A stretch of DNA of 38,751 nt from sequence record PZ465525.1, one strand, 5' to 3'. Both the position numbers and the translations under genes were made by a program. The DNA is from a phage. Shown here piece after piece: positions 16,932-38,751 of the stretch (within the stretch, counting starts at the first letter, position 1; each line of letters begins with the position of its first letter). A model generated the notes under the pieces. It worked only from the letters and a program-made list of their open reading frames with translations, ran no database searches and had not been told where the DNA came from.

Positions 16932-17210
16932 ATGAGTAAACAACAGGACAAGAGCCTGACGGTGTTCCTTGAAATGCTGGACACAGCGATGGCTCAACGA
17001 ATGCTTGCAGACCTTGGGGATGACGACCGCCGTTCTCCTCAGCTCTACAACGCAATCAACAAACTGCTTGACCGACATAAGTTCCAAATCGGCAAGCTGC
17101 AACCTGACGAGCACATTCTCGGTGGACTTGCGGGTGCCTTGGAGGAATACAAGGCGAAGGTGGGCGATACTGGTCTGACTGACGACGACCTGTACTCTAC
17201 CATCCAGTGA
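16932..17210 (+). CDS. 18: gp18 terminase small subunit (DNA maturation protein A)
   Basis: 92-aa ORF after RBS AAGGAG at the conserved position; T7 gp18 is 89 aa. Confidence 0.9.
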   Translation: MSKQQDKSLTVFLEMLDTAMAQRMLADLGDDDRRSPQLYNAINKLLDRHKFQIGKLQPDEHILGGLAGALEEYKAKVGDTGLTDDDLYSTIQ

Positions 17211-17750: not shown

Positions 17751-19511
17751 ATGTCTGTGCAGTCTAACCGTAATGCGCTCGTAGTGGCGCAACTGAAAGG
17801 TGACTTCGTGGCGTTCCTGTTCGTCCTTTGGAGGGCTCTGAATCTGCCGGAGCCCACAAAGTGTCAAATCGACATGGCCCGAACGCTGGCGAATGGGGAC
17901 AACAAGAAGTTCATCCTACAGGCTTTCCGAGGTATCGGTAAGTCGTTCATTACGTGTGCCTTCGTTGTGTGGTCGCTATGGCGTGACCCTCAATTGAAGA
18001 TTCTCATTGTGTCTGCCTCTAAGGAACGTGCAGACGCTAACTCAATCTTTATCAAGAACATCATCGACCTGTTGCCATTCTTGGCTGAGTTGAAGCCTAG
18101 AGCTGGTCAGCGGGACTCCGTAATCAGCTTTGACGTTGGCCCTGCGAAGCCTGACCACTCTCCGAGTGTGAAGTCCGTAGGTATCACTGGTCAGTTGACT
18201 GGTAGCCGTGCTGACATCATCATTGCGGACGACGTTGAGATTCCGTCTAACAGTGCGACTATGGGTGCCCGAGAGAAGCTGTGGACTCTGGTTCAGGAGT
18301 TCGCTGCGTTGCTTAAGCCCCTTCCGACTTCCCGAGTGATTTACCTTGGTACGCCTCAGACCGAAATGACCCTCTACAAGGAACTGGAAGATAACCGTGG
18401 GTACACCACCATCATCTGGCCTGCCATGTACCCGAGGAGCCGTGAAGAAGACCTGTACTACGCACAGCGTCTCGCACCGATGCTCCGAGCGGAGTACGAA
18501 GAGAACCCTGAGGCCCTGTCCGGTACACCTACCGACCCTGTGCGATTCGATAGGGAAGACCTGAGGGAACGTGAGCTGGAATATGGTAAGGCTGGCTTTA
18601 CGTTGCAGTTCATGCTCAACCCGAACCTGAGTGATGCCGAGAAGTACCCTCTGAGGCTCCGTGACGCTATCGTAGCGGCTCTGGACTTGGAGAAGGCACC
18701 GATGCACTACCAATGGCTGCCGAACCGTCAGAACCTCATTGAGGAGCTGCCAAACGTGGGCCTTAAGGGTGATGACCTTCATACGTATCACGCTTGCTCC
18801 AACAACACCAGTAAGTACCAACAGAAGATTCTGGTCATTGACCCGAGTGGTCGTGGTAAGGACGAAACTGGCTGGGCAGTGCTCTACACGCTCAACGGCT
18901 ACATCTACCTTATGGAGGCCGGAGGTTGCCGTGATGGTTACTCCGATAAGACGCTCGAACTGCTCGCTAAGAAGGCCAAGCAGTGGCAAGTCCAGACTGT
19001 GGTCTTCGAGAGTAACTTCGGTGACGGTATGTTCGGTAAGGTGTTCTCTCCGATTCTCCTTAAGCACCACAACGCTGTCCTTGAGGAAATCCGTGCGAGA
19101 GGCATGAAGGAGGTTCGCATCTGCGATACTCTGGAACCTGTCATGCAGACGCACCGCTTGGTTATCCGAGACGAGGTGATTAGGGCCGACTATCAGACCG
19201 CTAGGGACGCTGATGGTAAGCATGACGTGAAATACTCATTGTTCTACCAGATGACCCGTATCACCCGAGAGAAGGGCGCACTGGCTTACGATGACCGATT
19301 GGATGCTCTGGCGCTTGGCGTAGAGTTCCTTCGGGAGTCCATGCAGCTCGACTCAGTGAAGGTGGAGGGTGAACAGCTCGCAGACTTCCTTGAAGACCAC
19401 ATGAACCGTCCTACGGTCTCTGGTCACAACATCATGGAGCTGACTGTTGTTGGCCTTCACATCTACTCTGAGGATGACGATGGGTTCTCCGGTGGGTTCA
19501 TTGAGTGGTGA
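17751..19511 (+). CDS. 19: gp19 terminase large subunit (DNA maturation protein B)
   Basis: 586-aa ORF, same length as T7 gp19; RBS GGAGG; ATPase and nuclease gene at the conserved position. Confidence 0.95.
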
Positions 19512-19590
19512 TTTAGTCACGTAATGTGCATAAGGAAGCATAGGGAGCCAAGGAAGGCCCACTTGTAAGTTATTGATTCCTGAGGTGAAT

Positions 19591-19613
19591 CAATTCGACT
19601 CACTATAGGGAGA
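19591..19613 (+). promoter_or_regulatory. Phage RNAP promoter (phiOR-like) near the right end
   Basis: CAATTCGACTCACTATAGGGAGA: consensus core with two changes in the AT-rich upstream part; sits after gene 19 as phiOR does in T7. Confidence 0.85.
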
Positions 19614-19767
19614 GGAGGGACTAAAGGTTATATATAGTATACTGAATGAATAGACTTTGAGTGCATAAAGACCGCATAAAGTCCTACCTAAAGTTTACAC
19701 TAAGTGGTGGTGGTTATTATCAACAATACACCACCTAACTCTAAGAACACTCTAAGGAGGAGACCTC

Positions 19768-19920
19768 ATGTTCCGCTTTGTGCTGACCCCGCTGAAACAT
19801 CGGGTCACTTACCGATTTCTCGTTGTACTTGTTGCTGCCCTTGGGTGTGCATCAACTATTGGAGACACCATCGGTACATTGGAGTCTTACGTCTGTGCTG
19901 TACTCTCTTGTAGCGATTAA
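19768..19920 (+). CDS. 19.5: gp19.5 small hydrophobic protein
   Basis: 50 aa, MFRFVLTPLKHRVTYRFLVVLVAALGCASTIGDTIGTLESYVCAVLSCSD, similar to T7 gp19.5 (recalled); RBS AAGGAGG; too short for the ORF track. Confidence 0.8.
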   Translation: MFRFVLTPLKHRVTYRFLVVLVAALGCASTIGDTIGTLESYVCAVLSCSD

Positions 19921-19974
19921 GGTTCTAGTGACCGAATGGATTAACATTGCTTTCCGCTTAGCTGTGGACTACTG

Positions 19975-20365
19975 GGTCTGCCTAAGGCTCAACGCTGAGG
20001 GATTCAGCGGTATGATTGCATCACACCACTTCATCCCTATAGAGTCAAGTCCTAAGGTATACCCTAAAGGCCACACCTTAGGATTATCAATGGGTCTACC
20101 CAGAAGTCCACCTAAGGGTGGGCTGTACTGTGTGTGTGGTCTTAAAGAGGGAACCTAGGGAGTGCCCTAAGGAGACCCTTTAAAATATACCACAAAAATC
20201 TGAGCGACTATCTCACAGTTCAGAAACCCAAAGTTCCCCCATAGGGTATCCCAAGGGGTGGCCCTCTTAATGGCCCCACTTGAGACGCTTTGAGAGACCC
20301 TAAGGGATGACCTAAGGTTTACCATTGAGAGACCCTAAGGACTAAGCCTAGACCTAAGGGGAGGC
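19975..20365. repeat. Cluster of short CCTAAGG / CCTTAGG palindromic motifs at the right-end / concatemer-junction region
   Basis: About nine CCTAAGG-type motifs by eye (e.g. GCCTAAGGCTC, GTCCTAAGGTATACCCTAAAGG, CCACCTAAGGGTGG, GACCCTAAGGGATGACCTAAGG, GACCTAAGGGGAGG). Confidence 0.6.
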
Positions 20366-20442
20366 CATTAGGGGAGCTTTGAGGGGGGACATTGAGGGAC
20401 GTTGAGTGTCCTAGTGTCCCTATCTGTTACAACCTCTTAAAG
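20211..20442. repeat. Putative terminal repeat (single collapsed copy) marking the mature genome ends
   Basis: Begins TCTCACAG... like the T7 left end and ends ...CCCTATCTGTTACAACCTCTTAAAG like the end of the T7 terminal repeat; boundaries are by analogy only. Confidence 0.5.
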
Positions 20443-20633
20443 TATCCTCATAAAGCCACCTCTTAATGTCATTCCTAAAGCCTACACCTAAAGACTACAC
20501 CTAAAGACGCCATCGAGTCAATGCCTATCTTAAAGTATCCTCATAGAGTCACCTCTTAATGTCCTTCTTAAAGCCTACACCTAAAGATGCCCTGTTGTTA
20601 GCCATACAGAGATAATCTTCAATCATTGTCTCT
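20443..20633. repeat. Left-end array of ACCTAAAG-type short repeats with a duplicated ~80-bp unit
   Basis: CTCTTAAAGTATCCTCATAAAGCCACCTCTTAATGTCATTCCTAAAGCCTACACCTAAAGA recurs with small changes ~90 bp downstream. Confidence 0.6.
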
Positions 20634-20656
20634 TAATTCGACTCACTATAGGGAGA
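20634..20656 (+). promoter_or_regulatory. Phage RNAP promoter (phiOL-like) at the left end
   Basis: TAATTCGACTCACTATAGGGAGA: one mismatch to consensus. Confidence 0.85.
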
Positions 20657-20714
20657 CCACTTAAAGACCTTAAAGACCTTAAAGGGATTAATTTAAGATT
20701 TTAATAAAAGAGTA

Positions 20715-20751
20715 TTGACTTTAGGTCTAGCCTATAGGATATTTTGAGCCA
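20715..20751 (+). promoter_or_regulatory. Host sigma70 early promoter A1-like
   Basis: AAAAGAGTATTGACT-17 bp-GATATT...CCATCGAGAGGGACACGG: -35 TTGACT, -10 GATATT; near-identical to T7 A1 (recalled). Confidence 0.85.
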
Positions 20752-20841
20752 TCGAGAGGGACACGGTGAGTAGCCTTCCCAACCGATACCGGAGTCAACC
20801 GGATAAGTAGACAGCCTGCTCAGTCATACGAAAAACAGGCA

Positions 20842-20871
20842 TTGACAACACGAAGTAACCTGAAGTAAGAT
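20842..20871 (+). promoter_or_regulatory. Host sigma70 early promoter A2-like
   Basis: AAAAACAGGCATTGACAACACGAAGTAACCTGAAGTAAGATA: -35 TTGACA, -10 TAAGAT; as T7 A2 (recalled). Confidence 0.8.
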
Positions 20872-20940
20872 AATTAGCGTCAACACAACGGTGGCCCTCT
20901 GAAACGATACCGAAGGCGTCACGGCAAGAAAACCTAAGGG

Positions 20941-20972
20941 TTGACACTGAACGACAAACACGAAGTACACTG
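20941..20972 (+). promoter_or_regulatory. Host sigma70 early promoter A3-like
   Basis: GGTTGACACTGAACGACAAACACGAAGTACACTG: -35 TTGACA with a TACACT-type -10 at 18-19 bp spacing. Confidence 0.6.
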
Positions 20973-21112
20973 TAAGCACCTTAACGAAGACACCGAACGG
21001 CACGGTATACTGTCGGGCTCAGGATGAATTCCCTCTTGTGGGATGAAAAAGTGGGCATGGCGAAGGCACGAACTGCTACGCAAAGTAGCTATACCCAACG
21101 CCGAACACTGAA

Positions 21113-21158
21113 TGACTAACTCAAGGTCGTTCGCTAAGAGCGGCCTTTATGATAGTCA
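21113..21158 (+). promoter_or_regulatory. RNase III-type processing hairpin (R0.3-like)
   Basis: AACTCAAGGTCGTTCGCTAAGAGCGGCCTTTATGATAGTCAC. Confidence 0.75.
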
Positions 21159-21187
21159 CTCAACGAACCAACATGAGGTAACACAAA

Positions 21188-21643
21188 ATGATTTTCACTA
21201 AAGAACCTGCGAACATCTTCTATGTGCTGGTCTCTGCTTTCCGCTCAAACCTCGACGACGCTGAGAATATGAGCAGACACCGCCATATGGTTAGCACTTT
21301 ACGTGCCGCAGAAGGTCTTTATGGCTCCATTGAGTCAACCGATTTGACCGGATGCTATCGTGAGGAAATCGCAAGCGCGCCGACTGAGGAAAAAACTGTT
21401 CGTGTACGCTGCAAGGACGAGGCGCAGGCGCTCAATGTTGCACGTCTGGCTTGCAATGAGTGGGAACAAGATTGTGTGCTGGTATACAACTCCCAGACTC
21501 ACACTGCCAGCCTGATGTACGCTAAAGGCACCGATGGGCATAAGACCGAGCGTCTGGGGAGATTCCAAGAAGTGTCTAAAGGCGCACCGCTGCAAGGCTG
21601 CTACACGATTGACGAGTTTGGTCGCCGCTGGCAAGTACAATAA
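21188..21643 (+). CDS. S-adenosylmethionine-cleaving enzyme (T3 gene 0.3-type SAMase / SAM lyase), anti-restriction
   Basis: 151 aa, MIFTKEPANIFYVLVSAFRSNL...GAPLQGCYTIDEFGRRWQVQ, near-identical to the T3 SAMase as recalled; RBS GAGGT. Confidence 0.9.
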   Translation: MIFTKEPANIFYVLVSAFRSNLDDAENMSRHRHMVSTLRAAEGLYGSIESTDLTGCYREEIASAPTEEKTVRVRCKDEAQALNVARLACNEWEQDCVLVYNSQTHTASLMYAKGTDGHKTERLGRFQEVSKGAPLQGCYTIDEFGRRWQVQ

Positions 21644-21888: not shown

Positions 21889-22410
21889 ATGAAACGCAAT
21901 GCTAATGCTTATTACGAACTGCTGGCCGCTACTGTTGAGGCATTCAATGAGCGCATCCAAGAAGACAAGTTGACCGAGGATAGTGATTACCACGATGCCC
22001 TGCATAAAGTGGTTGACCGGATGGTTCCGAGCTACTACTGGGAAATCTTCATGGTCATGGCGGCTGACGGTATTGACGTTGAGTTTGACGATGATGGTCT
22101 GATGCCAGACACCAAGGATGTTACCCGAATCCTGCAAGCCCGCATCTACGAGGCGCTATATAACGATGTGCCCAACGATAGCGGGGTCGAATGGTACGAA
22201 GGCGAGGAGGAGGAGGAGCCCGAGGAGCCAAGCCAGTGGTATGTAATCAATGATGAAGAACACGGGAGCTTTGTGGTCTCCTTTCACGACTCACTAAAGG
22301 CAGCCATTGAGGCAGCCGATGAACGATACAATACGCTGGGCAAGCGGTGCCACGTTGAGGATGATACCAGCTCAGATGTGCTTTACAATCCGGTAACTGC
22401 TGACGAGTGA
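21889..22410 (+). CDS. ocr: Ocr-like DNA-mimic anti-restriction protein with a ~65-aa C-terminal extension
   Basis: 173 aa; residues ~30-100 (HDALHKVVDRMVPSYYWEIFMVMAADGIDVEFDDDGLMPDTKDVTRILQARIYEAL) align to T7 Ocr (117 aa, recalled); RBS CTGAGGTAACACACT-ATG is the T7 0.3-type initiation region. Confidence 0.85.
   Translation: MKRNANAYYELLAATVEAFNERIQEDKLTEDSDYHDALHKVVDRMVPSYYWEIFMVMAADGIDVEFDDDGLMPDTKDVTRILQARIYEALYNDVPNDSGVEWYEGEEEEEPEEPSQWYVINDEEHGSFVVSFHDSLKAAIEAADERYNTLGKRCHVEDDTSSDVLYNPVTADE
22281..22303 (+). promoter_or_regulatory. Promoter-like relic inside the Ocr-like coding sequence
   Basis: CTTTCACGACTCACTAAAGGCAG matches the consensus core ACGACTCACTA-AGG but lacks the TAATA upstream part; probably nonfunctional. 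Confidence 0.3.
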
Positions 22411-23652: not shown

Positions 23653-26304
23653 ATGACTGTAATCGCAATCGAAAAGAACGACTTCTCCGACGTTGAGCTG
23701 GCTGTTATCCCGTTCAACACACTGGCAGACCACTACGGTGAGAAGCTGGCCCGTGAGCAGTTGGCACTTGAGCACGAAGCTTATGAAATGGGCGAGGCCC
23801 GTTTCCGCAAGATATTCGAGCGTCAGCTTAAGGCTGGTGAGGTTGCAGATAACGCTGCCGCTAAGCCGCTTGTCGCAACCCTGCTCCCCAAGATGATTGA
23901 GCGAATCCACGCTTGGTTCGAGGAGGTTTCCGTTAAGCGTGGCAAGCGCCCGACTGCCTTTAAGTTCCTGCAAGAGGTAAAGCCAGAGGCTATCGCTTAC
24001 ATCACCATCAAGACCGTTCTGGGTGCTCTGACAAGCGCTGAGCAAACCACTGTGCAAGCCGCCGCGTCTGCTGTTGGTCGCGCCATTGAGGACGAAGCCC
24101 GCTTTGGTCGCATCCGTGACCTTGAGGCTAAGCACTTCAAGAAGAACGTGGAGGAACAGCTTAACAAGCGTGTGGGCCACGTCTACAAGAAGGCTTTCCT
24201 GCAAGTGGTTGAGGCTGATATGCTGAGCAAGGGCCTGATGGGCGGTGAAGCGTGGTCTAGCTGGCACAAAGAAGACTCCATCCACGTTGGCGTTCGCTGC
24301 ATCGAAATGCTCATTGAGTCAACCGGTCTTGTTGTCCTTGAGCGTCAAAACGCTGGCGTCGTTGGCGCTGATGCTGAGACCCTGAGCCTTGCCTCTGAGT
24401 ATGCTGACGTAATCGCAACCCGCGCTGGTGCTCTGGCTGGTATCTCTCCAATGTATCAGCCTTGCGTAGTTCCGCCTAAACCTTGGACAACTGTGACTGG
24501 CGGTGGCTACTGGGCTAACGGTCGCCGTCCGCTTGCTCTGGTGCGTACCCACGGCAAGAAGGCGCTGATGCGCTACGAGGACGTTTACATGCCTGAGGTT
24601 TACAAAGCGGTCAACCTTGCGCAATCCACCGCATGGAAAATCAACAAGAAGGTGCTGGCGGTAGCCAACGAGATTACCAAGTGGAAGCACTGCCCTGTTG
24701 AGGACATTCCGGCAATCGAGCGCGAGGATCTGCCAGTTAAACCGGACGACATTGACGAGAACCCTGAGGCGCTGATCAACTGGAAACGTGCTGCGGCGGC
24801 TGTGTACCGCAAGGACAAGGCCCGCAAGTCTCGCCGTCTGTCCCTTGAGTTTATGCTTGAGCAGGCCAACAAGTTCGCAAACCACAAGGCCATTTGGTTC
24901 CCTTACAACATGGACTGGCGTGGTCGCGTTTACGCGGTCTCCATGTTCAACCCGCAAGGCAACGATATGACCAAGGGCTTGCTGACTCTGGCTAAGGGAA
25001 AGGCAATCGGCAAGGAAGGTTTCTACTGGCTGAAAATCCACGGTGCAAACTGCGCTGGTGTCGATAAGGTTCCGTTCCCTGAGCGCATCAAGTTCATTGA
25101 GGACAACCACGAGCACATCATGGCGTCCGCTAAGAACCCGCTTGAGTACACTTGGTGGGCCGAACAAGATAGCCCGTTCTGCTTCCTTGCGTTCTGCTTT
25201 GAGTACGCTGGGGTAATGCACCACGGCTTGTCTTATAACTGCTCCCTGCCGCTGGCTTTCGACGGCTCCTGCTCTGGCATCCAGCACTTCTCCGCGATGC
25301 TGCGCGATGAAGTTGGTGGTCGTGCGGTGAACCTGCTCCCGAGCGAGACCGTGCAGGACATTTACGGCATCGTAGCCAAGAGGGTGAACGAAATCCTGCA
25401 ACGCGATGTTATCTTTGGGACTGACGACGAGTTGGTCACTGAGACTGACAAGACCACTGGGGAAATCACTGAGAAAACCGTACTGGGCACTCGCACTCTG
25501 GCGGGCCAATGGCTGGCCTATGGGGTCAACCGTAGCGTAACCAAGCGTTCCGTAATGACTCTGGCGTATGGCTCCAAGGAGTTCGGTTTCCGTCAGCAAG
25601 TCCTTGAGGACACTATCCGTCCGGCTATCGACTCCGGCAAGGGCCTGATGTTCACCATCCCGTACCAAGCGGCTGGCTACATGGCTAAGCTGATTTGGGA
25701 CTCTGTGAGCGTGACCGTAGTTGCTGCGGTAGAGGCCATGAAGTGGCTGCAAAGTGCCGCTAAGCTGCTGGCCGCTGAGGTCAAGGACAAGAAGACTGGT
25801 GAGGTTCTGCGTAACCGCTGCGCTGTTCACTGGGTAACTCCCGATGGGTTCGCCGTATGGCAGGAGTACCGCAAGCCTCTGCAAACCCGTCTGAATCTGA
25901 TGTTCCTCGGTCAGTTCCGCTTGCAGCCGACCATCAACACCAACAAGGACTCTGGGATTGATGCTCATAAGCAGGAGTCTGGCATTGCACCTAACTTCGT
26001 ACACTCTCAGGATGGCTCTCACCTGCGCAAGACCGTAGTGTGGGCTCACGAAAAGTACGGCATCGAGTCTTTCGCTCTGATTCACGACTCTTTCGGAACC
26101 ATTCCGGCTGACGCTGGCAACCTATTCAAGGCTGTGCGTGAGACTATGGTTGACACCTACGAGAAGAACGATGTGCTGGCCGACTTCTACGAGCAGTTTG
26201 CTGACCAGCTCCACGAGTCCCAACTGGACAAGATGCCTGCTCTGCCGAAGAAAGGCAACCTGAACCTGCGGGACATTCTTGAGTCTGACTTCGCGTTCGC
26301 GTAA
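23653..26304 (+). CDS. 1: gp1 single-subunit DNA-dependent RNA polymerase
   Basis: 883 aa, identical in length and highly similar to T7 RNAP (MTVIAIEKNDFSDVELAAIPFNTLADHYGE..., ends ...LRDILESDFAFA). Confidence 0.98.
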   Translation: MTVIAIEKNDFSDVELAVIPFNTLADHYGEKLAREQLALEHEAYEMGEARFRKIFERQLKAGEVADNAAAKPLVATLLPKMIERIHAWFEEVSVKRGKRPTAFKFLQEVKPEAIAYITIKTVLGALTSAEQTTVQAAASAVGRAIEDEARFGRIRDLEAKHFKKNVEEQLNKRVGHVYKKAFLQVVEADMLSKGLMGGEAWSSWHKEDSIHVGVRCIEMLIESTGLVVLERQNAGVVGADAETLSLASEYADVIATRAGALAGISPMYQPCVVPPKPWTTVTGGGYWANGRRPLALVRTHGKKALMRYEDVYMPEVYKAVNLAQSTAWKINKKVLAVANEITKWKHCPVEDIPAIEREDLPVKPDDIDENPEALINWKRAAAAVYRKDKARKSRRLSLEFMLEQANKFANHKAIWFPYNMDWRGRVYAVSMFNPQGNDMTKGLLTLAKGKAIGKEGFYWLKIHGANCAGVDKVPFPERIKFIEDNHEHIMASAKNPLEYTWWAEQDSPFCFLAFCFEYAGVMHHGLSYNCSLPLAFDGSCSGIQHFSAMLRDEVGGRAVNLLPSETVQDIYGIVAKRVNEILQRDVIFGTDDELVTETDKTTGEITEKTVLGTRTLAGQWLAYGVNRSVTKRSVMTLAYGSKEFGFRQQVLEDTIRPAIDSGKGLMFTIPYQAAGYMAKLIWDSVSVTVVAAVEAMKWLQSAAKLLAAEVKDKKTGEVLRNRCAVHWVTPDGFAVWQEYRKPLQTRLNLMFLGQFRLQPTINTNKDSGIDAHKQESGIAPNFVHSQDGSHLRKTVVWAHEKYGIESFALIHDSFGTIPADAGNLFKAVRETMVDTYEKNDVLADFYEQFADQLHESQLDKMPALPKKGNLNLRDILESDFAFA

Positions 26305-29876: not shown

Positions 29877-30332
29877 ATGTCTGGCGCATACGCTGCGCGT
29901 GGTATCCGAAAGGTCGGGGCATTCCGCTCCGGCCTTGAAGATAAGGTCTCTAAGCAGCTAGAGAGTAAAGGAGTGAAGTTTGACTACGAGTTGTGGAAGA
30001 TTCCATACGTAGTCCCTGCAAGCAATCATGGGTATACACCAGACTTCCTGCTGCCTAATGGAATCTTCATTGAAACCAAAGGTTTATGGGATAGTGACGA
30101 CCGAAAGAAACACTTATTGATTCGTGAACAGTTTCCCGAACTGGACATCCGTCTAGTGTTCTCAAGCTCTCGCACGAAGCTGTACAAAGGGTCTCCGACC
30201 AGTTACGGTGAGTGGTGCGAGAAGCACGGTATCCTGTTTGCTGACAAATTAATTCCTGTAGAATGGCTCAAAGAACCCAAAAAGGAGGTGCCATTTGACA
30301 AGCTGAAACAATTGAAGGGAGGAAAGAAGTAA
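29877..30332 (+). CDS. 3: gp3 endonuclease I (Holliday junction resolvase)
   Basis: 151 aa, ...GIRKVGAFRSGLEDKVSKQLESKG...PDFLLPNGIFIETKG..., highly similar to T7 gp3 (recalled). Confidence 0.96.
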   Translation: MSGAYAARGIRKVGAFRSGLEDKVSKQLESKGVKFDYELWKIPYVVPASNHGYTPDFLLPNGIFIETKGLWDSDDRKKHLLIREQFPELDIRLVFSSSRTKLYKGSPTSYGEWCEKHGILFADKLIPVEWLKEPKKEVPFDKLKQLKGGKK

Positions 30333-30787
30333 TGTCTCGAGTACAATTCAAACAGAGGGAGGCGACTAACGCCATTTTTGTACACTGCTCTGCAACCAAG
30401 GCAACTCAGGACGTTGGTGTCCGTGAGATTCGCCAGTGGCACAAGGAGCAAGGCTGGCTTGACGTAGGCTACCACTTCATCATTCGCCGTGATGGCACTA
30501 TCGAAGATGGCCGAGACGTTAACGCCGTGGGCTCTCATGCCCGTGGTTACAACCACAACTCCGTAGGCGTGTGCCTTGTTGGGGGCATTGACGAGAAGGG
30601 TCGGCACGAAGCCAACTTCACTCCTCAACAGATGTCTGCCCTGCGCACACTGCTGGAAGTCCTGATGGACAAGTACCCGAGCGCGGTACTTCGCGCCCAC
30701 CACGATGTTGCACCGAAGGCTTGCCCTTCGTTCGACCTGCAACGCTGGTGGAGGCACAATGAGCTGGTCACTTCTGACCGAGGCTAA
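30332..30787 (+). CDS. 3.5: gp3.5 lysozyme (N-acetylmuramoyl-L-alanine amidase; RNAP inhibitor)
   Basis: 151 aa, MSRVQFKQREATNAIFVHCSATK...AHHDVAPKACPSFDL..., highly similar to T7 lysozyme (recalled); TAATG overlap with gene 3. Confidence 0.97.
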   Translation: MSRVQFKQREATNAIFVHCSATKATQDVGVREIRQWHKEQGWLDVGYHFIIRRDGTIEDGRDVNAVGSHARGYNHNSVGVCLVGGIDEKGRHEANFTPQQMSALRTLLEVLMDKYPSAVLRAHHDVAPKACPSFDLQRWWRHNELVTSDRG

Positions 30788-38394: not shown

Positions 38395-38751
38395 TGACCA
38401 AGAAGCGGTTCGTTAGCGTAGAGGCGGTCAGTCGCTTCCACGCGATTATGTGGACTGTGCAGTACCTTGGGGTGCCCACTGGTTTCCGCGACTTCTGGGA
38501 TTACGAAGGATACGTCAATAACATCATGGACGCTGCTGAGTTCGAGGAGGAGTACATCATGGACTCCACTACTGGCAACTTGGTGGCCTACTTCACGTGG
38601 TGTGTCAGTAACGACATTCACCACAAGGGAGACATAATGGACGTGACGAACTTGGTGATTGACCCAGAGTTCGAGTCGCGGGAACTCCATAAGTTCCTGA
38701 GTGGTCGCTTTAAGGAGCTGGCCGAGCTGAATGGTCTACAATGGGTGTCCC
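38394..38751 (+). CDS. 7: Gene 7 host-range/virion protein, N-terminal part (truncated by the window end; continues at 1-174)
   Basis: ATG 38394 overlaps the 6.7 stop (TGATG); MTKKRFVSVEAVSRFHAIMWTVQYLGVPTGF... is in frame with bases 1-174 once the 121-bp end overlap is removed. Confidence 0.8.
   Translation, partial: MTKKRFVSVEAVSRFHAIMWTVQYLGVPTGFRDFWDYEGYVNNIMDAAEFEEEYIMDSTTGNLVAYFTWCVSNDIHHKGDIMDVTNLVIDPEFESRELHKFLSGRFKELAELNGLQWVS
38631..38751. repeat. 121-bp exact duplicate of window positions 1-121 (circular-assembly overlap, not a biological repeat)
   Basis: 38631-38751 (GACATAATGGACGTGACGAACTTGG...ATGGGTGTCCC) is identical to 1-121; it lies inside gene 7. Confidence 0.9.

Follow-up and report, generated by a model that had tools for sequence, protein, structure and literature searches.

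At which nucleotides does a T7-like phage genome begin and end when its record has been closed into a circle? This question is raised by the region 19921-20700 of sequence record PZ465525.1, a phage DNA of 38,751 nucleotides (the whole stretch, one strand from 5' to 3', is called the window below), which lies between gene 19.5, the last gene before the right end, and a gene for an S-adenosylmethionine (SAM) hydrolase. We conclude that this region is very probably the head-to-tail concatemer junction of a linear genome of the T7 type that the assembler has circularised, with the ends of the mature DNA at 20211 and 20421. The closure would have come about because both genome ends carry one and the same direct repeat.

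That two genome ends are joined here as in a circle had already been proposed in an initial annotation made from the letters alone, and this is borne out by an overlap at the ends of the window, by the order of the genes and by the alignment of both borders with T7 and T3. The first 121 nt of the window match its last 121 nt exactly (1-121 and 38631-38751); this overlap is an assembler artefact of contig closure, without which the unit measures 38,630 bp. Assemblers are known to place the first base of such genomes at random (PMC5557969). A full T7-type gene set is encoded on the + strand, running from the portal through the tail genes to gp18, an Rz-like spanin, gp19 and 19.5, and around the circle the order reads gp18, gp19, 19.5, the junction, the SAM hydrolase, an Ocr-like protein, a 0.7-type kinase, the RNA polymerase (RNAP) and the remaining genes. 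About 1.27 kb of non-coding DNA follows gene 19.5, and across it the gene 19/19.5 end continues directly into the gene 0.3 region. At both borders the junction aligns base for base with those of T7, T3 and Cedecea phage Yanou, and by this homology it is an orthologue of the already known T7 concatemer junction. In whole-genome searches, the window showed 93-97% DNA identity over 80-96% of the length with Escherichia phage Ebrios, Stenotrophomonas phage IME15 and the Aeromonas phages PZL-Ah1, KFSA9 and avDM11-UST, all labelled Teseptimavirus; on this sequence identity, the phage is a Teseptimavirus of the Ebrios/IME15 clade.

By homology, the virion DNA is predicted to start at 20211, with 5'-TCTCACAGTTCAG..., and to end at 20421, with ...GTGTCCTAGTGTCCCT-3', the 211 bp from 20211 to 20421 (+ strand) forming the putative direct terminal repeat. 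An exact-match search detected no second copy of this repeat in the window, in line with the earlier view that it has been collapsed to a single copy. The records of Ebrios, KFSA9, IME15, N30 and PZL-Ah1 cannot fix its borders because they hold no second copy: exact terminal-repeat searches gave none in the first four and only a 115-nt assembler overlap in PZL-Ah1. The borders were calibrated on four genomes in which the repeat is deposited at both ends, namely T7, T3 (NC_003298), Yanou and Escherichia phage IMM-002, with repeats of 160, 231, 159 and 189 bp, respectively, by exact matching; those of T3 and Yanou are also annotated. In all four, the repeat opens with TCTCA(C/T)AG. It closes with ...GTGTCCCT in T7, T3 and Yanou and with ...GAGTCTCT in IMM-002 (general form ...TC(C/T)CT), and at the left end it is followed by ATCTGTT(A) in the first three and by ATCTGTA in IMM-002. 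In the window, TCTCACAG begins at 20211, and positions 20414-20428 read GTGTCCCT followed by ATCTGTT, as in T7, T3 and Yanou; the right border falls between 20421 and 20422, with ...GTGTCCTAGTGTCCCT on its left and ATCTGTTACAACCTCTTAAAG on its right. Because the homologous repeats in the four genomes stop before ATCTGT(T/A), we take the repeat to be 20211-20421.

The initial annotation had let the repeat run on to about 20442, giving it a length of about 230 bp, and had likened the string found there to the end of the T7 repeat. A repeat of 232 bp (20211-20442, with last bases ...CTGTTACAACCTCTTAAAG) would agree with lengths that exist in the family (231 bp in T3; 230 bp in SH1 and 232 bp in phiYeO3-12, as quoted in PMC4925675), and the string itself is present at 20422-20442. 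However, this string, ATCTGTTACAACCTCTTAAAG, matches the 21 nt that come after the 160-bp repeat of T7, where its homologue ATCTGTTACAGTCTCCTAAAG occupies nt 161-181, outside the repeat, and is absent from the T7 right end. T3, Yanou and IMM-002 are arranged like T7, with the string beyond the repeat, and the right end of T3 has been measured as ...GTGTCCCT. The longer repeat is very unlikely on these grounds, and homology sets the border 21 bp earlier, at 20421.

On the left side, the flank CCTTTAAAATATACCACAAAAATCTGAGCGACTA and the adjoining TCTCACAG share 32 of 34 positions with T7, and the stretch 20177-20218, in which ...AAAAATCTGAGYGRSTA precedes TCTCAYAG, matches T7, T3 and Yanou. The conserved flank of the predicted left-end cut extends over 20175..20246 (+ strand; ACCCTTTAAAATATACCACAAAAATCTGAGCGACTA / TCTCACAGT...CCCAAAGTTCCCCCATAGGG, the slash marking the cut); it is kept in eight to nine of the nine genomes compared and stands in front of the repeat in T7, T3 and Yanou. 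TCTCAYAGT and ATCTGTTA each occur exactly once per junction in all nine junctions, and the repeat lengths derived from these landmarks (159-242 bp; 198-242 bp in the five clade relatives) reproduce the 160, 231 and 159 bp of T7, T3 and Yanou. The mature left end near 20211, which had been suggested before, is further supported by the deposited records: of the best 60 records that match 20211-20262, at least 20, Ebrios included, have the homologue of 20211 as their first base, and so do Yanou, N30, IMM-002 and many records of T7. In T3, the termini were located by read pile-ups as TCTCATAG... and ...GTGTCCCT, the piled-up reads being TCTCATAGTT... forward and AGGGACACAT... reverse (PMC3896407), and PhageTerm recovers the 160-bp and 231-bp repeats of T7 and T3 (PMC5557969). 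Run-off sequencing has borne out alignment-based predictions of the ends in five T7-like Citrobacter phages, whose repeats measure 183-242 bp (PMC4925675). With 20211-20421 at both ends, the mature DNA of the window phage is predicted to measure 38,841 bp, and the terminal reads expected on virion DNA are 5'-TCTCACAGTTCAGAAACCCA... and 5'-AGGGACACTAGGACACTCAA....

Several points weigh against this assignment. Both ends of the window phage rest on homology, not on reads or virion DNA, and the same applies to the ends in its clade: none of the five clade records holds the repeat in two copies, three are broken inside or beside the junction, and the first nucleotide of Ebrios was set by alignment (Ebrios paper). 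The interior of the repeat differs among relatives in sequence as well as in length (198-242 bp), so that only the conserved flanks define the borders. Moreover, the steps of polymerase pausing, terminase recruitment and repeat duplication discussed below are carried over from T7 and T3. A circular assembly, taken alone, looks the same for a permuted and for a terminally repeated genome, and the circle might reflect circular permutation by headful packaging, in a phage with no fixed ends. With a terminase 91% identical to that of T7, conserved flanks at both cut sites and exact short repeats in the relatives whose ends were measured, we judge headful packaging to be extremely improbable, and retain a linear genome with fixed ends at 20211 and 20421.

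Element by element, the layout of the junction is that of T7 and T3. A phage-RNAP promoter, AATTCGACTCACTATAGGGAGA, is predicted at 19592..19613 (+ strand), the position at which phiOR is annotated in T7 and T3, and the identical 22-mer recurs at 20635..20656 (+ strand), where phiOL is annotated in both. Perfect 18-mer promoter cores number six in the whole genome, with 0.01 expected, and two of them bracket the junction; transcription from the promoter at 19592 would run rightwards through it. The unique right-end region (19921..20210, + strand) contains four CCTAAGG, one CCTTAGG, one CCTAAAG and one CTTAAAG, aligns with the right ends of T7 and T3, and appears to correspond to the repeat array that T7 carries on the left of its right terminal repeat.

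Directly right of the repeat stands ATCTGTT (20422..20428, + strand), the putative class II pause/termination signal known as the concatemer junction (CJ) pause site. Class II signals are defined by ATCTGTT on the non-template strand with any base but G in front of it; they are strictly sequence-specific and act 6-8 nt downstream. The copy in the window agrees with this definition, being preceded by T (20421-20428) and lying downstream of the 19592 promoter, and with an RNAP 89% identical to that of T7 it is predicted to be a T7-type pause signal. It is the only ATCTGTT on the + strand; six copies are found on the - strand (1695, 5706, 8279, 8360, 14510 and 30627), and about 1.7 per strand are expected from an estimate based on composition. 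Avoidance of the motif on the + strand was considered and rejected, counts of one and six being too small.

The left-end heptamer array (20422..20634, + strand) holds four CCTAAAG and three CTTAAAG and aligns with T7 nt 161-395, right of the left repeat of that phage. A duplicated unit of about 80 bp with CCTAAAG motifs had been described here; the duplication is real, with a core of 60 nt instead of about 80 bp (20435-20494 and 20528-20587; 56 of 60 positions identical, starts 93 nt apart), and a 13-nt tandem repeat (20474-20508) lies within the first copy of this core. Past the phiOL equivalent, a 9-nt tandem repeat (CTTAAAGAC, 2.8 copies) leads into an A+T-rich stretch (20660..20684, + strand), and similar sequence follows phiOL in T7. 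Two predicted host-type early promoters come next on the + strand, an A1-like one at 20715-20743 (TTGACT-17-GATATT) and an A2-like one at 20842-20871 (TTGACA-18-TAAGAT), where A1-A3 are annotated in T7 and T3.

CCTAAGG occurs at 19981, 20051, 20111, 20166, 20299, 20311, 20334 and 20353 and CCTTAGG at 20076, which makes nine CCTNAGG sites, five of them left of 20211 and four inside the repeat. The count of about nine sites upstream of and within the repeat given by the initial annotation is correct, its description of them as palindromes is not: CCTAAGG reads CCTTAGG on the opposite strand and is thus no palindrome, eight of the nine point in a single direction, and the heptamer is a directional spelling variant of CCTAAAG. 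The ninth site is a point variant whose central T (A-to-T) is private to the window. At the equivalent position CCTAAGG is present in six of the eight other aligned genomes, including all five close relatives (that of Yanou being deduced from alignment column counts); in T7 and T3 neither spelling is present. Formally, CCTNAGG is an interrupted palindrome, and with 9 of the 22 genomic CCTNAGG sites lying here the cluster could be taken for symmetric targets, for instance of a protein that acts as a dimer or of a restriction-type enzyme resembling Bsu36I. Such targets are hardly credible, however, given that the centre is A on the + strand in eight of nine sites, that the lone CCTTAGG reads CCTAAGG in the five close relatives, and that the motif grades into the non-symmetric CCTAAAG and CTTAAAG within these very arrays.

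The variant at 20076 can pair with the CCTAAGG at 20051 into a 10-pair hairpin that the five close relatives lack. A functional role for this hairpin (20050-20083, TCCTAAGGT...ACCTTAGGA), the strongest simple one in the window, was rejected, since it needs the private CCTTAGG where relatives have CCTAAGG.

As directional elements, the heptamers are strongly concentrated in the 780 bp of the junction, which contain 8 of the 11 genomic copies of CCTAAGG and the single copy of CCTTAGG (about 0.05 expected per motif by base composition), as well as 12 of the 16 genomic copies of CYTAAAG (CCTAAAG and CTTAAAG), all on the + strand. Heptamers of the form CYTA[AT]RG number seven left of the repeat, four inside it and seven right of it, none of them reversed. 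We regard these arrays as candidate elements only and, judging from their position, as probably this lineage's version of the T7 repeat arrays that flank the repeat. In other phages, the regions bound by the small terminase typically hold multi-copy directional repeats. By this analogy, the arrays (CCTAAGG up to the right border of the repeat, CCTAAAG beyond it) might be sites for the terminase or another packaging or replication protein, with the cut-site flanks and the inverted repeat described below being secondary. The extreme strand-specific enrichment and the presence of similar arrays around the repeat in all nine compared genomes speak for such a role. On the other hand, close relatives differ in how many heptamers they have and in how these are spaced and spelt, whereas the flanks and the inverted-repeat block are invariant. 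In a genome-wide insertion map of T7, moreover, insertions near the genome ends were tolerated at most loci, the exceptions being positions 142 (at the right edge of the repeat) and 162 (in ATCTGTT). Because insertions near the ends fail only at these two places, the map points to the cut-site/pause region, rather than any single heptamer, as the probable critical element. We consider a role of these heptamers as the primary protein sites a tentative option, of appreciable but lower probability.

In the alignment of the nine junctions, type and direction of the heptamers are kept, their number and position are not, and three stretches are invariant: 19997-20050, the left-cut flank 20175-20246 and the right-cut flank with the pause site (about 20405-20440). 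The first of these stretches, a block of 54 nt (19997-20050), recurs with 100% identity in T7 (nt 39568-39621), phiA1122 and several Salmonella, Serratia and Yersinia phages; it is conserved in nine of nine aligned genomes, and 104 of the 144 records matching it are at least 99% identical. The whole-genome identity to the window is only about 77-83% for the non-clade T7-like genomes listed. The block contains a 41-nt imperfect inverted repeat (19998..20038, no strand assigned; T7 nt 39569-39609) whose midpoint lies 193 nt left of the left-end cut; its 15 pairs fall into four segments that surround a central TGC. Its T7-type and T3-type versions give an identical dot-bracket fold, with -7.2 and -7.3 kcal/mol (DNA parameters). 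Across five distinct sequences, pairing is kept in 75 of 75 cells and falls to 33-47% when the partner is slid by 1-3 columns. Between the T7 and T3 types, four pairs have changed on both sides (A-T/G-C, G-C/T-A, G-C/A-T and A-T/G-C) with zero uncompensated stem changes, a compensation that stems in effect from one lineage split and not from many independent events.

A conserved inverted repeat of this kind is compatible with a hairpin or cruciform in the DNA as well as with a symmetric site bound by a protein. The hairpin of T7 concatemers probably lies a short distance left of the junction, and we treat its link to this element as a lead and not as a result. The proposal that 19998-20038 is the cis element for this 'hairpin end', or a cruciform or symmetric terminase site (pacB), is speculative, with a small chance of being right; our literature search for the mapped positions of pacB, pacC and the T7 hairpin end gave secondary citations only. 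A simple ungapped hairpin scan across genera returned matches in three other groups, 155-186 nt left of the cut. In a second phage group (IMG/VR contigs with a terminase about 80% identical; loci L085, L091, L098 and L112-L119), a different 11-pair inverted repeat (AGTGATTATGG...CCTATAATCACT) is centred 182-186 nt left of TCTCATAG and followed by AGTCAA, as in T7; it shows one compensated pair, a T-A to A-T swap in two contigs. In IMM-002 and one further group, inverted repeats without relation to these lie at -155 and -170. These elements at similar distance may lend weak support to a role for 19998-20038, weak because stems of 8-10 pairs can arise by chance in 300 nt of repeat-rich DNA. On the conservation described above, the cut-site flanks and the inverted repeat appear better candidates than the heptamers for sequence-specific signals. 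The reverse strand of the inverted repeat, TTGACTCTATAGGGATGA, loosely resembles a truncated phage promoter.

How might the junction be processed? Because all parts are present here and near-identical to those of T7 and T3, the best inference is that the mechanism of these phages is most likely shared. Packaging of T7 proceeds from the right end leftwards. Replication would yield concatemers in which adjacent genomes share a single copy of the repeat, and the phage RNAP, starting at the 19592 promoter and transcribing rightwards, would pause just past ATCTGTT (20422) together with the gp3.5 lysozyme. The paused complex would meet the gp18/gp19 terminase, which would bind the pac elements and cut at both borders of the repeat, the missing repeat copy being made by 3' extension from staggered nicks, possibly via a hairpin intermediate. 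In the T7 system, the RNAP-gp3.5 complex has been described to pause at the CJ site, to meet gp18/gp19 and to have a role in starting maturation (PMC3276506). The pac site has two parts, PacB, which gp18 recognises, and PacC, where gp19 cuts (PMC9860248), and repeats arise by 3' extension from staggered nicks whose positions are fixed (PMC5557969). A plasmid carrying a T7 origin, the pac site and the repeat is packaged. The T7 junction was described in 1983 (Dunn and Studier) and dissected between 1990 and 2004 (Chung and Hinkle 1990; Zhang and Studier 2004).

The proteins that this process would need are encoded on the + strand of the window. Gene 18, for the terminase small subunit (16932..17210; PHROG 1351, E=1e-39), is 86% identical to T7 gp18, and gene 19, for the large subunit (17751..19511; PHROG 38, E=5e-134), matches T7 gp19 without gaps over 586 aa at 91% identity. 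Gene 19.5 (19768..19920; PHROG 2193, E=6.5e-20) occupies the place at which 19.5 is annotated in T7. Gene 1 (23653..26304) codes for the single-subunit RNAP of 883 aa, 89% identical to T7 RNAP without gaps, which would read the phage promoters and the pause signal. Gene 3.5, the amidase/lysozyme (30332..30787; PHROG 822, E=9e-78), is the counterpart of the RNAP partner at the junction pause (PMC3276506). Within the junction, the small open reading frames at 19823-20158 (+ strand) and 20167-20325 (- strand) gave no family match, or a marginal one confined to the overlap with gene 19.5, and an Rfam scan of 19400-21300 returned zero families; the region was treated as non-coding, as in T7.

Right of the junction, the + strand encodes the T3-type SAM hydrolase (21188-21643; PHROG 2226, E=2e-54) and, 245 nt after it, a T7-type Ocr-like anti-restriction protein (21889-22410; PHROG 2568, E=6e-55). 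Both are present in this phage, and avDM11-UST likewise carries both; as first gene, only the Ocr-like gene 0.3 is seen in the stretch of T7 that we viewed and only a SAM-hydrolase-type gene in that of T3. The recorded hosts of the 93-97% identical genomes diverge, comprising Escherichia coli C, Aeromonas hydrophila and Stenotrophomonas maltophilia, and the authors of Ebrios obtained no plaques on their own Stenotrophomonas strain. Because near-identical genomes are recorded from such different hosts, and in view of the plaque failure of Ebrios, host labels within the Ebrios/IME15 clade deserve caution.

The ends predicted here bear on the deposited records. The terminal repeat is annotated in none of the clade records. 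The Ebrios record, which gives the repeat a single time, opens at the T7-homologous base. IME15, PZL-Ah1, KFSA9 and avDM11-UST (OP380607) have been opened at arbitrary places within the junction or close to it: IME15 (JX872508/NC_019416) is cut 73 nt inside the repeat, KFSA9 (PQ824399) starts 47 nt left of it, and PZL-Ah1 (MT681669) is labelled circular, its 115-nt duplicated overlap lying in the junction. The advice to re-linearise the present record was sound, and the place to do so is 20211, with the 211-bp repeat appended at the right end (38,841 bp) and the 121-nt overlap dropped; an equal correction is due for IME15, PZL-Ah1, KFSA9 and avDM11-UST. The value of this is practical, not conceptual, as correct ends serve comparative genomics, the rebooting and engineering of phages and the design of packaging-signal plasmids. 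As a candidate cis-acting packaging element, the conserved inverted repeat could be tested cheaply in the T7 model system; if it were the hairpin end or pacB, it would be an element not yet tied to the exact sequence 19998-20038.

The junction shares much with those of its own clade, of T3 and of T7. In Ebrios, IME15, PZL-Ah1, KFSA9 and avDM11-UST, the junction is 84-92% identical, the CCTAAGG-rich repeat measures 198-242 bp and the flanks are shared, and the window is distinguished by point changes such as the CCTTAGG at 20076. With T3 it has in common a repeat that starts with TCTCAYAG, ends with GTGTCCCT and is followed by ATCTGTTA, a similar repeat length (231 bp in T3), a T3-type SAM hydrolase as the first gene after the junction, and the inverted repeat, shared with four compensated pairs. 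T3 differs by its T3-type promoters, by heptamers that are CCTAAAG only and by a shorter left-end array of 142 nt, and its overall DNA similarity to the window is much lower. With T7 it shares the order of the elements, the flanks of the cut sites, identical or nearly so on both sides, ATCTGTT directly after the repeat, the promoter core, and an RNAP and a terminase that are 86-91% identical. The T7 repeat, however, measures 160 bp compared with 211 bp here, and its interior is largely unalignable. In T7 the heptamer is mostly CCTAAAG, whereas CCTAAGG (eight copies) prevails inside and left of the repeat in the window, and the clade is alike in this. The second half of the left-end array of the window duplicates its first unit, whereas T7 has ACCAGACCTAAAG units.

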